DNA of 64,000 nucleotides. Origin: Actinomycetota bacterium. Its GTDB lineage: Bacteria; Actinomycetota; UBA4738; CALAEC01. The stretch lies in assembly GCA_050692555.1 (NCBI GenBank), contig JBOGVS010000010.1:5691-69690 (forward strand), written 5' to 3'. The first letter of the stretch is position 1. Each line of letters begins with the position of its first letter. The notes under the pieces were generated by a model, which worked only from the letters and a program-made list of their open reading frames with translations, was not told the DNA's origin and ran no database searches. The translations under genes and the position numbers were made by a program. Shown here one piece after another: positions 27,464-47,970 of the stretch.

Positions 27464-28537
27464 ATGTCCAGAGCTAGACGCCACGCGCGGCCCCGATCAC
27501 GCGCGCGCGGAAGCGTGCGCGTTACGGTTTCGATCGCCCTCGGCCTGGTGCTGATCGGCGGGGGGGCGGCCTATGCCGCCTACCGGTACGACGCTGCCAC
27601 CTCGAACCGCATCATGCCGGGGGTGTCGATCGCCGGGGTGGAGGTGGGCGAGCTCACCCGGCAGGAGGCCATCGGCGAGGTCGCCGGTGCGGTCGAGGTC
27701 ACCCTCGATCGGGAGATCCAGGTCCACGCCGGGGACGAGACGTGGCACATCACGCCGCAGGAGCTGGGAGCCACCGCGGTGGTCGACCCCATGGTCGATC
27801 GGGCCCTGGCCCTGTCCGATGGCTACACCTGGCCGGAGCGGGTCTTCCACCGGCTCCTGGACCGCGAGGTCGACGAGACGCTCGGTCTCCGGTACCGGCA
27901 GAACGGGGACGACCTCGGCCGGTTCGTGGAGACCGTGGCCCAAACGGTGAACGTGGACCCCACGGATGCCTCCGTGTCGGTCGTGGACGGAGGGCTGGTG
28001 CTGGAGCGTCCGGAGGTGGGCTGGGCCCTCCCCATGAAGGAGTCTCTGCGAACCATTCGCCGGGCCGTGGCGGGGGAGACCGATTCGGTGGATCTCGGAC
28101 TGGAGCGGATCGCCCCGGAGGTGGGGCGGGACGACATCGGAAAGACCCTCGTGGTCAATCTGTCCGAGCTCGAGCTGTACCTGTATGACGGGCTCCGACT
28201 GAAGAAGACCTACCCGGTGGCGGCGGGGTCGCCCTCGTACCCCACCCCGCCGGGTGAGTGGGAGATCTGGGACAAGCGTGAGAACCCCACGTGGGTGAAC
28301 CCGGCCCCCGACGGGTGGGGCAAGGGTCTTCCCGCCAGCGTTCCGGGAGGCCCGGGAAGCCCGCTGGGGACTCGGGCTCTGTACCTCGACGCCCCAGGCA
28401 TCCGGATCCACGGCACCCCGGCGTCCTACTCGATCGGAACCTATGCCTCCCACGGGTGCATCCGGATGCTGATGGAGGACGTGGAGGAGCTCTACGAAAT
28501 CGTCCCCATCGGGACCAAGGTTCACGTCGTTTCGTAG
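27464..28537 (+). CDS. L,D-transpeptidase (YkuD) with N-terminal TM and peptidoglycan-binding region
   Basis: IRIHGT and ASHGCIRM catalytic motifs, YPVAAG, NPTWVNP, PLGTRALYL. Confidence 0.92.
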   Translation: MSRARRHARPRSRARGSVRVTVSIALGLVLIGGGAAYAAYRYDAATSNRIMPGVSIAGVEVGELTRQEAIGEVAGAVEVTLDREIQVHAGDETWHITPQELGATAVVDPMVDRALALSDGYTWPERVFHRLLDREVDETLGLRYRQNGDDLGRFVETVAQTVNVDPTDASVSVVDGGLVLERPEVGWALPMKESLRTIRRAVAGETDSVDLGLERIAPEVGRDDIGKTLVVNLSELELYLYDGLRLKKTYPVAAGSPSYPTPPGEWEIWDKRENPTWVNPAPDGWGKGLPASVPGGPGSPLGTRALYLDAPGIRIHGTPASYSIGTYASHGCIRMLMEDVEELYEIVPIGTKVHVVS

Positions 28538-28565
28538 CAAAGACCGACAAGAACCGCTGATCGGC

Positions 28566-28595
28566 TTGCGCCCATCGTTCCGGCGGGATTATGAT
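28566..28595 (+). promoter_or_regulatory. Sigma70-type promoter pointing into a non-coding region
   Basis: TTGCGC(28566-28571)-N18-TATGAT(28590-28595). Confidence 0.55.
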
Positions 28596-28600
28596 GGTGT

Positions 28601-28845
28601 AGTACTCCGAAGAGGCACGAAGGGGCGACCCGGAAGGCCACTTCGGAGTACGCTTTCGTGGAGAGGTCCCCGGCGGGCCTCTCTCGTCTTTACCTGGGGC
28701 TTCCTCGGGCGGCCACTCGGCCGCGGGGAGACCCGAAACCTGGGGTTTCTTAGGTAGCACCTCTGTTACCCAAGGCGCCTATTTCATCCGGCCGGCCCGG
28801 GAAAGAGGCCACCCCCCTGAAGAAGCCCCCGTGCGGGCTTCGTTG
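28601..28845 (+). ncRNA. Candidate structured non-coding RNA of unknown class
   Basis: No credible ORF; upstream promoter; stems 28602-28612/28641-28651, 28661-28683 and 28691-28756; terminal hairpin 28822-28841. Strand is inferred from the promoter. Confidence 0.5.
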
Positions 28846-28877
28846 CGGAATCACAAGGCTGTGATTATGCTTCCCCC

Positions 28878-29120
28878 GTGCGGGAATGCGTGAAGCCCGG
28901 TTGCGGCCGGCCCGCGGAGGTCTCGGCGGGGGTTCGGTATGCAGAGCGGGTGGCCTGGCTGGGGGATCTGGTCCCCGAGCGCGACCCCAACCTGCTCGAT
29001 CTGTGCACCGAGCACGCCGACCGTCTGCGACCGCCTCGGGGATGGCGGGTGGTCGACGATCGGTCGCCGGCCTCGGATGTCAGCCTCGAGCCCGTTCAGG
29101 AGGTTGTGGCCGGGGGTTGA
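28878..29120 (+). CDS. DUF3499 family protein
   Basis: RECVKPGCGRPA and DLCTEHADRLRPPRGW; position before manB. Confidence 0.85.
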   Translation: MRECVKPGCGRPAEVSAGVRYAERVAWLGDLVPERDPNLLDLCTEHADRLRPPRGWRVVDDRSPASDVSLEPVQEVVAGG

Positions 29121-29157
29121 GCCCGGAGGCCAAACTTGGGTACGCTCGTTACCCAAG

Positions 29158-29475
29158 ATGCCTCTCGACCGGCAGCTGATTCGACAGGTTCGCGGTCTCG
29201 ACGAGCACGACCTGCGCCGGCTGGTGATCTTCACCCGCGGCCTGCTGGTCTCCCGGTACGGGGCCGAGATGCCCGAGCGGGAGCGTCGAAGCCGGGTCAC
29301 CTTTCGCCAGGAGCGGGTCAGGTGCGGCCGGACCGGATGCACCAAGTGTCCTCACGGGCCGTATTGGTATGCGTACTGGCGCGAAGGGGGACGGCTCAGG
29401 TCCCGGTACATCGGCAAGGAGCTCCCCGAGGTCAGCGGACCGAGGCGTCGGCCGTCTGGCGGACGGGCGGAATAG
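29158..29475 (+). CDS. Small basic protein with DUF6788-like Cys/His motif
   Basis: VRCGRTGCTKCPHGPYWYAYWREGGRLRSRYIGK. Confidence 0.7.
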   Translation: MPLDRQLIRQVRGLDEHDLRRLVIFTRGLLVSRYGAEMPERERRSRVTFRQERVRCGRTGCTKCPHGPYWYAYWREGGRLRSRYIGKELPEVSGPRRRPSGGRAE

Positions 29476-29551
29476 TCATGTTTGACCATCCGAAAATGGC
29501 TCGCCCGGGCTATGCAGCCCCGGACCCTTGCGAGCCGACCACTAGAGTGAC

Positions 29552-29737
29552 ATGAACAGCACGCGCGGAAGGCACTCGGCCCGGTGCGAGCGATGTGACA
29601 CCGACCTGATCACCATCTCCATGCGGGATGGGGAGATCCGGTTCTCGTCCTGTGTCTCGTGCGAGATCACCGTGTGGGAGCGGGGCGGTTCAGTGGTCCC
29701 CCGCGCCGCGGTGATCGCGGACATCCCACGGCGCTGA
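29552..29737 (+). CDS. Small zinc-ribbon-like hypothetical protein
   Basis: Two CxxC pairs (CERC, CVSC); followed by a hairpin. Confidence 0.6.
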   Translation: MNSTRGRHSARCERCDTDLITISMRDGEIRFSSCVSCEITVWERGGSVVPRAAVIADIPRR

Positions 29738-35921: not shown

Positions 35922-36150
35922 GCTCGCGCCTGGGTCTGTGGTTGCCCGGAGGGACGTCCTCCGGTAGTCGACGCCAGCCGCAGGCGAAACGACCCACGTA
36001 AGGCGACCATTGGTTGCTGAGCATGGTGCGGCTTAGATGTAAGCCCTGCCTCGGCCATCGGCCGGGAGAAGGTGCTAAGCCGTCGTCCTCGACGGCGAAC
36101 CCCTCAGCAGGCGGGTGTGGGGGCAAAGACCAGGTCAGCCGGACGCGAGC
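35922..36150 (+). ncRNA. raiA motif RNA
   Basis: Between comF and hpf/raiA; terminal stem GCTCGCG/CGCGAGC; contains segments I recall as conserved in raiA RNAs (GTGGTTG, AGTCGAcGCCAG, GCAGGCgAAACGAcCCACGTAAG, GAGCATGGTGCGGCTTAGAtGTAAG, AGCAGGCGgGTGTGGGG, CAAAGACCAGGTCA); TACCAT -10 at 35908-35913. Confidence 0.9.
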
Positions 36151-47528: not shown

Positions 47529-47877
47529 GGGGGTGACCTGGCTTCGACTTGGGTGATTGCCGCCCGGGGGAAGCGGGCCGAGGTTCCCGGAGTCCTCGTT
47601 AAAGAGCCGGGACCAACACAAGCGCCGACGATTACGCGCTCGCTGCCTAGTTAGCTAGGTAGCCGTCCGCCGTGGCTCGCCTGTGGCCACGGGCCGGACG
47701 TCATCAACAGGCTTACCCGGCAGGGTGCGCCTCGTGCCCCGCCGGGGACATCTCAGCGAGGCTGGTCCGGCGGACCTCCGCCTGTGGGAACCGCCGGACG
47801 AGATCGATCCGCAGGCTGCGCCCGGAGAAGACCCGGACGGTCGCCCGAGGACGCGGGTTCGATTCCCGCCACCTCCA
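47529..47877 (+). ncRNA. ssrA: Transfer-messenger RNA; tag peptide (A)ADDYALAA
   Basis: 5' GGGGGTG pairs with 3' CACCTCC-A; T-arm GCGGGTTCGATTCCCGC; tag ORF GCC GAC GAT TAC GCG CTC GCT GCC TAG at 47624-47650; follows smpB; TATACT -10 at 47507-47512. Confidence 0.96.
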
Positions 47878-47878
47878 C

Positions 47879-47970
47879 GAGCGCCACCGCATCCGTGACA
47901 CGGATCCCCGTCGGCTGAGCCCACATCCACAGTTCGAGATTCTCCGGTCTGTTGTCCTCACGCCATCTCG
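47879..47970 (-). pseudogene. Degenerate C-terminal fragment of an HNH endonuclease abutting the ssrA 3' end
   Basis: Minus strand encodes DNRPENLELWMWAQPTGIRVTDAVA, with DGVR in an adjacent frame just upstream; resembles the NGxRxDNRxENLELW motif of HNH_3-type proteins. Confidence 0.6.

Follow-up and report, generated by a model that had tools for sequence, protein, structure and literature searches.

A conserved plus-strand hairpin with its own predicted promoter between the L,D-transpeptidase and DUF3499 genes of uncultured soil Actinomycetota

The window analyzed here is a stretch of 64,000 nucleotides from an Actinomycetota bacterium, in which an L,D-transpeptidase gene and a DUF3499 gene are separated by a gap of 340 bp. 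A preliminary description had proposed that the gap contains no credible ORF and carries a free-standing non-coding RNA of about 245 nt (28601-28845), transcribed from its own promoter and ending in a terminal hairpin. The genes and elements of the locus are as follows, with clade A denoting the clade of the window:

27464-28537, plus strand: L,D-transpeptidase gene (YkuD and PG_binding_4 domains by Pfam), upstream of P1
28537-28554, no strand assigned: upstream box GCAAAGACCGACAAGAAC (consensus GAAAGAGTGACAAGAAC), located between the -35 and the transpeptidase stop codon, which it closely follows
28566-28571, plus strand: -35 hexamer TTGCGC, as TTGnnn in 71/71 distinct upstream regions
28590-28595, plus strand: -10 hexamer TATGAT, 18-nt spacer from the -35, 6 nt before P1
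28602-28651, plus strand: P1, conserved core hairpin with a GCGA (GNRA) tetraloop, from covariation, covariance model and fold
28652-28659, plus strand: pyrimidine/U-rich tract GCTTTCGT, consensus R-Y-Y-U-Y-U-K-U, from T enrichment
28660-28684, plus strand: P2, G+C-rich hairpin followed by a short T-run, clade A only, from covariation
28685-28748, plus strand: P3, hairpin-prone region including GCGGCC-ACTC-GGCCGC, variable in length and sequence
28749-28774, plus strand: P4, imperfect inverted repeat CTTAGGTAGC-N6-GTTACCCAAG, both arms sequence-conserved in clade A
28775-28842, plus strand: unconserved tail (by z-score and deletion) with the proposed terminal hairpin GAAGCCC/GGGCTTC at 28823-28841
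28843-28877, plus strand: DUF3499 promoter, of the same layout with and without P1 wherever DUF3499 is present
28878-29120, plus strand: DUF3499 gene (PF12005 by Pfam, and homologues), downstream of the gap

The sole ORF across the gap (28566-28757, 63 aa) has no Pfam match, and the lengths of P1 in relatives differ by 1, 2 and 6 nt, which shifts the frame and excludes coding. This small ORF was therefore rejected, in agreement with the preliminary description. The 245-nt candidate as a whole folds at -124.4 kcal/mol, with z = -3.1 on the plus strand and -2.5 on the minus strand against shuffles. Most P1 loci keep the box upstream of the -35, at much the same distance from it in clades A and B; its orientation is forward in clade A, and clade B has the reverse complement (GTTCCTGTCACTCTTTC). 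It is missing in a few loci (L114, L128/L132/L135).

Close relatives of the DUF3499 protein are few, and the closest, from locus L001, is 81% identical; at this locus the promoter, P1 and P2 are almost unchanged and P3 is altered. A DUF3499 profile run against the GTDB species genomes identified 66 loci, each in an uncultured Actinomycetota MAG. Using BLASTN over these loci, the segment from the -10 through P1 was the only part found conserved (78-91%), in 13 of them, always upstream of DUF3499 and preceded by the transpeptidase gene. In the loci without P1, the transpeptidase stop codon is followed by 20-90 nt and then directly by the DUF3499 promoter. Scanning of metagenome contigs with the P1 pattern gave 72 loci, 70 of which contain true P1 by the covariance model (60-75 bits); a same-strand transpeptidase gene was detected upstream wherever at least 180 nt was available (tblastn), and DUF3499 was found downstream in 53. 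The P1 unit is thus present in 86 loci in all, the window and 85 others (14 genome loci, 70 metagenome loci and L001).

The covariance model identified exactly one P1 copy per carrier locus, and no copy within about 4 kb to either side in any of the 51 genome loci of non-carriers. The rest of the 64-kb window and some 0.9 Mb of related loci contained no second copy and no repeat family. An origin of P1 from phage was also considered and was rejected because viral contigs gave no match. As far as searched, the carriers are uncultured soil Actinomycetota only, and many sister lineages are without P1. In a tree of the phosphomannomutase (PMM) protein, the deepest branches are those of P1 carriers, with a large group of non-carriers nested within; P1 is therefore ancestral to the lineage and has been lost repeatedly.

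The arrangement TTGCGC-N18-TATGAT, with stems beginning 6 nt later, is present as first described. To characterize its conservation we surveyed 71 distinct 60-nt regions upstream of P1. TAnnnT sits 6 nt (61 regions) or 7 nt (10 regions) 5' of the first G of P1, and TTGnnn lies 17-18 nt upstream of the -10 in every region (TTGCGC in 48). The -10 occurs as 28 different hexamers, in which T, A and T alone are fixed. Judged from its sequence, TTGnnn-N17/18-TAnnnT is the signature of a working actinobacterial housekeeping promoter, and its fixed distance would put the transcription start on or adjacent to G28602, the base that opens P1. A scan for consensus promoters and terminators reported nothing at the locus; its TTGACA/TATAAT scoring and its 3-8-nt loop limit are unsuited to this promoter and this hairpin.

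P1 consists, from base to tip, of a perfect 11-bp stem (GTACTCCGAAG/CTTCGGAGTAC), an A·A mismatch, a 3-bp stem, a 5x5 purine-rich internal loop that carries tandem G·A, a second 3-bp stem and the tetraloop, so that the basal stem encloses GGG-GCGA-CCC, as had been noted. With its tail it folds at -31.6 kcal/mol (z = -5.2). In an alignment of 47 distinct sequences (16 in an earlier version), with lengths of 47, 48, 50, 52 and 56 nt among relatives, the mean column identity is 76%; the neighbouring proteins are 37-79% identical to those of the window. Standard pairs occupy 93.9% of 837 cells, and double changes were found in six pairs, involving 61 cells. Examples are positions 9-48 (AU 14, CG 11, GU 10, UG 10), 10-47 (AU 24, GC 19) and 14-43 (GC 16, AU 7). 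The covariation score was reached by none of 500 shuffles, and in a control with the 3' partner slid by 1-3 columns pairing fell to 32-46%.

The strand could also be assigned. Both G·U and U·G pairs are present in P1, and these would be A·C mismatches on the opposite strand, so they fit the plus strand alone; the covariance model gives 60-75 bits on the plus strand vs 22-37 bits on the minus strand. On this comparative evidence P1 is an RNA structure acting on the plus strand. The covarying pairs lie midway along the helix. Its 8 outermost base pairs (GUACUCCG/CGGAGUAC) are near-invariant, as is the module GA(A/C)-GGG-GNRA-CCC-GG at its apex; within this module, the sequence of 5'-GA-3'/3'-AG-5' is compatible with tandem sheared G·A pairing.

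The 8 nt after P1 contain on average 4.5 T over 70 distinct tails, vs a background of 15-17% T, and tail positions +2 to +5 are nearly all pyrimidines. The tract starts 1-2 nt past the stem and is imperfect (e.g., GCUUUCGU, AUCUCGUU). A stable G+C-rich stem followed by a U-rich tract has the anatomy, albeit imperfect, of an intrinsic terminator. The hairpin GAGAGG..CCTCTC reported just downstream corresponds to P2. In clade A, 92.5% of its cells are paired, 5 of its 7 pairs show double changes and none of 500 shuffles matches its score. P2 is possibly a second terminator. Because it covaries, transcripts of clade A would pass P1 at least sometimes, and a longer functional RNA or a leader is possible there.

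Conservation of structure does not continue through the rest of the gap. P3 is unalignable across clade A, and its predicted fold in the window differs from that in L001. The multi-part arm TACCT..AGGTA of the preliminary description, with its inner GCGGCC-ACTC-GGCCGC, can be read in the letters of the window but is not conserved, since the inner hairpin has lost its 5' arm in L001, the closest relative; the pairing TACCT..AGGTA itself is seen in the window and L001 alone, and the conserved P4 repeat competes with it. P4 is a degenerate copy of a palindrome at 29135-29157 (see below). Its clade-A form is CTTAGGTAAC-N5/6-GYTACCYAAG. Of the 27 distinct versions, 14 have A·C at position 4, with a mixture at position 5, so that mismatches are compensated only in part; its fold has z = -3.35. 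Covariation in the syntenic interval of relatives, on which the first proposal depended, is therefore seen lineage-wide for P1 and within clade A for P2, but not for P3 and only partly for P4.

The proposed terminal hairpin GAAGCCC/GGGCTTC does exist as letters but fails as a 3' end. The segment that contains it (28775-28848) folds no better than shuffles (z = -0.07), and L001 has a deletion of about 49 nt corresponding to 28776-28825 of the window; the tail (28775-28842) is absent from other relatives. Everything past 28774 is, by comparison of relatives, unconserved spacer. The candidate of about 245 nt thus stands as non-coding and as having its own promoter, but its extent does not, as conservation covers the first ~58 nt lineage-wide and about 175 nt in the clade of the window. 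Clades B and C share P1 alone with the window, and in clade B the sequence after P1 is unrelated to that of the window. The spacer from P1 to the DUF3499 -35 ranges from 17 to 194 nt and is unconserved between clades; in the shortest forms the -35 starts 17-30 nt past P1. In one clade B subgroup the sequence after P1 is C-rich and G-poor (51-53% C, 19-24% G). The five loci L083, L092, L133, L089 and L111 have a spacer of 74-80 nt of this composition between P1 and the DUF3499 promoter, which resembles a Rho-utilisation site.

DUF3499 has a promoter of its own, with the -35 TTGCGG at 28843-28848, the -10 TATGCT at 28866-28871 and 6 nt to the GTG at 28878. In relatives this promoter comprises TTGnnA, ATCACA-N4-TGTGAT and TAnnnT, with 6-8 nt to ATG or GTG and no Shine-Dalgarno sequence. 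A start codon 6-8 nt past the -10 implies a leaderless mRNA. The same leaderless promoter is kept in the 51 genome loci without P1, in line with the earlier view that the RNA is not a DUF3499 leader in the ordinary sense. In the window the spacer between the -35 and the -10 contains an operator-like palindrome, AATCACA-N4-TGTGATT (28849-28866), which recurs with and without P1 and suggests a repressor of the mannose operon. DUF3499 was described in Corynebacterium glutamicum as heading the mannose-6-phosphate operon (PMC7775120). Other literature on DUF3499 and Rv3258c provided context only and nothing on a motif of this type.

The synteny is constant (DUF5719 - transpeptidase - [P1] - DUF3499 - small CxxC protein - PMM - Trm112-like - SIS), with DUF6788 present between DUF3499 and the small CxxC gene in clade A only. 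The transpeptidase gene is the one neighbour of P1 that never changes, and none of the locus genes compared tracks the presence of P1. Five loci (L114, L117, L118, L139 and L134) have kept P1 and lost DUF3499 together with its promoter, which indicates that P1 is independent of DUF3499. DUF3499 protein had been considered as the partner of the RNA and was rejected for the same reason, P1 being present in loci without it; its AlphaFold model is poor (pLDDT 62). In L134 (P1 at 1329-1378, oriented), the loop of P4 is 31 nt long, and 7 nt separate P4 from the start codon of DUF6788.

Further non-coding elements were observed downstream of DUF3499. The palindrome CTTGGGTAC-GCTC-GTTACCCAAG at 29135-29157 is near-perfect and abuts the DUF6788 ATG at 29158. 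It occurs in 17 distinct clade-A versions with an arm gap of 5 to 8 nt, its arms are the same as those of P4 and its loop always keeps TAnnCT, a possible -10; it is a candidate operator, promoter or RNA hairpin. Between DUF6788 and PMM lies a gene (29552-29737) for a small protein with CxxC...CxxC, found in almost all related loci and without a Pfam match. Upstream of it, 29491-29516 is a conserved non-coding stretch. The motifs GGCCGTTCGGCC and GAAATG-N10-12-GCTATGG are situated 35-45 nt before the ATG of the CxxC gene in all clades, and in clade C they are complementary over about 11 nt. The stretch has no Rfam match and is retained where DUF3499 has been deleted (L139 170-420, L118, L114).

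To determine whether P1 belongs to a known RNA family, covariance searches were performed with Rfam 15. At the gathering score, the whole window yielded only tmRNA (47529-47880, 154 bits) and raiA (35925-36147, 151 bits). At E <= 10, the regions 28400-29000 and 28596-28665 gave chance matches only (E >= 1.2), and the one suggestive alignment under permissive settings was to the terminator hairpin of RsmW; four clade-C loci gave nothing at E <= 1. None of the 4227 Rfam families matched, in a library not checked for an Ms1 model, which bears out the initial impression that the RNA fits no known family. The 6S model had no match at the gathering score or at E <= 10, and the SRP models had none to the P1 region, whose loop sequences differ from domain IV. 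By inspection, the P1 loops misfit the consensus motifs of the K-turn, loop E and SRP domain IV, and these candidates were rejected. As for a riboswitch, no alternative, mutually exclusive pairing was found and the downstream sequence is unconserved between clades; nor is a downstream gene consistently controlled, as DUF3499 has its own leaderless promoter and P1 persists without DUF3499. A promoter at fixed distance and compensatory changes that fit a single strand, as expected of a small RNA gene, were both found. P1 would belong to a known kind, the small structured non-coding RNA with its own promoter.

P1 can be compared with several known systems. 6S RNA binds the sigma-A holoenzyme, has a central bubble of about 15 nt and templates pRNA; Ms1, a mycobacterial RNA some 300 nt long, binds the core polymerase. 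The preliminary description had suggested an RNA in the manner of 6S/Ms1, and the likeness would be that of a free-standing ncRNA of the abundant type, which Actinobacteria make from a housekeeping-type promoter. However, 6S (RF00013) and Ms1 are rods of about 180-300 nt with paired 5' and 3' ends and a central bubble, whereas the 5' end of the present RNA is closed, in every fold, in a covarying local hairpin of 50 nt. The architecture is thus unlike that of 6S, with no long rod or central bubble, and the analogy is not supported. MicL and DapZ are enterobacterial small RNAs derived from 3'UTRs with their own promoters. P1 would resemble them in having a promoter at the 3' end of the upstream gene, a hairpin and U-tract shared with the mRNA, and a short product. 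They differ in having a conserved single-stranded seed and Hfq; P1 is almost a hairpin alone, with conservation at helical and internal-loop positions, and shares no sequence homology with them. Actinomycetota are not known to have Hfq.

The RNAs put (phage HK022) and EAR (Bacillus eps operons) act in processive antitermination. EAR RNA is mentioned in PMC7858274. Like these, P1 is structured, conserved and located ahead of a long operon (for EAR, one for envelope polysaccharide), and its high sequence conservation would suit contact with polymerase. In contrast to them, P1 is terminator-like, a separate promoter serves the next gene, many relatives have the operon but not P1, and no Rfam match was obtained. 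NMT1/xanthine, THF-II and HMP-PP thiS are small rod-like or terminator-embedded riboswitch aptamers. Like P1, they are rod-like hairpins of about 50 nt with an internal loop that is symmetric and conserved, and they overlap a terminator in part; but P1 is without an alternative pairing, a plainly controlled gene or an Rfam match. Domain IV of SRP RNA (4.5S) also has a 3-bp stem capped by a GNRA loop and an adjoining symmetric purine-rich internal loop; the loop of P1 is ACGAA/GGAAG, vs AGG/AGCA in 4.5S. SRP RNA is moreover essential, whereas P1 has been lost in many lineages.

Taken on its sequence and conservation, P1 may be a hairpin RNA of about 55-60 nt made on its own, which would also terminate transcripts of the transpeptidase gene and probably binds a protein, a reading to which we give an even chance. 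Its predicted 5' and 3' ends follow from the promoter distance and the U-rich tract. The most serious rival arises from the covariation of P2 and treats P1 as the 5' domain of a longer cis-acting leader, made from a second, upstream promoter of the DUF3499/phosphomannomutase/manA cell-envelope operon. Such a leader would work either as a protein- or ligand-responsive attenuator or, as put and EAR do, by modifying polymerase for read-through of a downstream terminator. A promoter does immediately precede P1, and a long co-directional operon lies downstream of it; in C. glutamicum, DUF3499 was described as heading the mannose-6-phosphate operon (PMC7775120). P2 covaries and hence appears to be transcribed, in L134 P4 precedes the next gene by 7 nt with no other promoter evident, and the sequence-level conservation of the helix would fit contact with RNA polymerase. 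We nevertheless regard a leader as possible but doubtful. A read-through mRNA would be poorly translated, given that DUF3499 has its own promoter and a start codon 6-8 nt past the -10 with no Shine-Dalgarno sequence. Transcription starting at the first base of P1 would leave nothing upstream to compete with the hairpin, so there would be no antiterminator alternative, and the 11-bp basal stem is stable without a ligand. In addition, 51 related genome loci run the same operon without P1, and no Rfam family matches.

The remaining explanations are less probable. That P1 is merely an intrinsic terminator or 3' stabiliser of the transpeptidase mRNA, the promoter being coincidental or serving the downstream operon, would account for the invariable adjacency of the two, for the hairpin followed by a U-rich tract and for the lack of any further terminator in the stretch that separates the transpeptidase stop codon from P1 (in a scan with a 3-8-nt loop limit). 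We consider it improbable in view of the promoter, positioned in 71/71 regions at a fixed 6-7 nt from the first base of P1, and of a column identity of 76%, which is atypical of terminators and is maintained as neighbouring proteins drift to 40-60%. One free-standing RNA of about 245 nt (28601-28845), ending at GAAGCCC/GGGCTTC and acting on RNA polymerase as 6S or Ms1 does, has a slighter chance still. The stretch as a whole is more stable than shuffles (z = -3.1), and the conservation of P1, P2 and P4 in the clade of the window would be consistent with a multi-hairpin RNA of about 175 nt. But the last segment (28775-28848) has z = -0.07 and is hit by the 49-nt deletion in the closest relative, the structure of P3 is unconserved, clades B and C share only P1 with the window, a 5' end closed in a local hairpin leaves neither a closing stem nor a central bubble, and no 6S match was obtained. 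It is very unlikely that the element acts as DNA, with a protein recognizing a palindrome or cruciform. In favour of this, the 8 outermost base pairs (GTACTCCG/CGGAGTAC) form an inverted repeat without variation, and P4 and the palindrome at 29135-29157 are arm-conserved repeats; yet the arms of P1 are 34 nt apart with a conserved asymmetric interior between them, G·U and U·G pairs are tolerated that give A·C mismatches on the other strand, and the model scores are strongly strand-asymmetric.

Under the favoured reading of a free-standing, terminating hairpin RNA, transcription would start at the first base of P1 from its own promoter, and much of it would stop at the U-rich tract to release a hairpin of about 55-60 nt. 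P1 would also end the L,D-transpeptidase transcript and shield the DUF3499 promoter from read-through. In the clade of the window, some transcription may read past P1 into P2 (perhaps a back-up terminator), P3 and P4. Sequence conservation extends to the helical positions and no single-stranded seed is present, so a protein-bound RNA is most likely. The protein would bind at the tandem-G·A/GNRA module, and pairing with mRNA would not be the mode of action. We think it unlikely that P1 is the first of a new class, in which a tandem-G·A/GNRA binding site couples peptidoglycan cross-linking to the GDP-mannose operon; the bound partner in that case could be RNA polymerase, a cell-envelope regulator or a small ligand, e.g., a metabolite of the mannose pathway.

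By comparative sequence analysis, P1 is a well-supported RNA family absent from Rfam, in a lineage without cultured members, with 86 loci, 47 distinct sequences, a promoter defined to the base and covariation. For annotation, the 245-nt candidate is trimmed to a core of about 58 nt with clade-specific additions, and the 6S/Ms1 label is removed. The invariant helical and internal-loop positions of P1 point to a specific partner, and its position between cell-wall and mannose-pathway genes is of interest in Actinobacteria.
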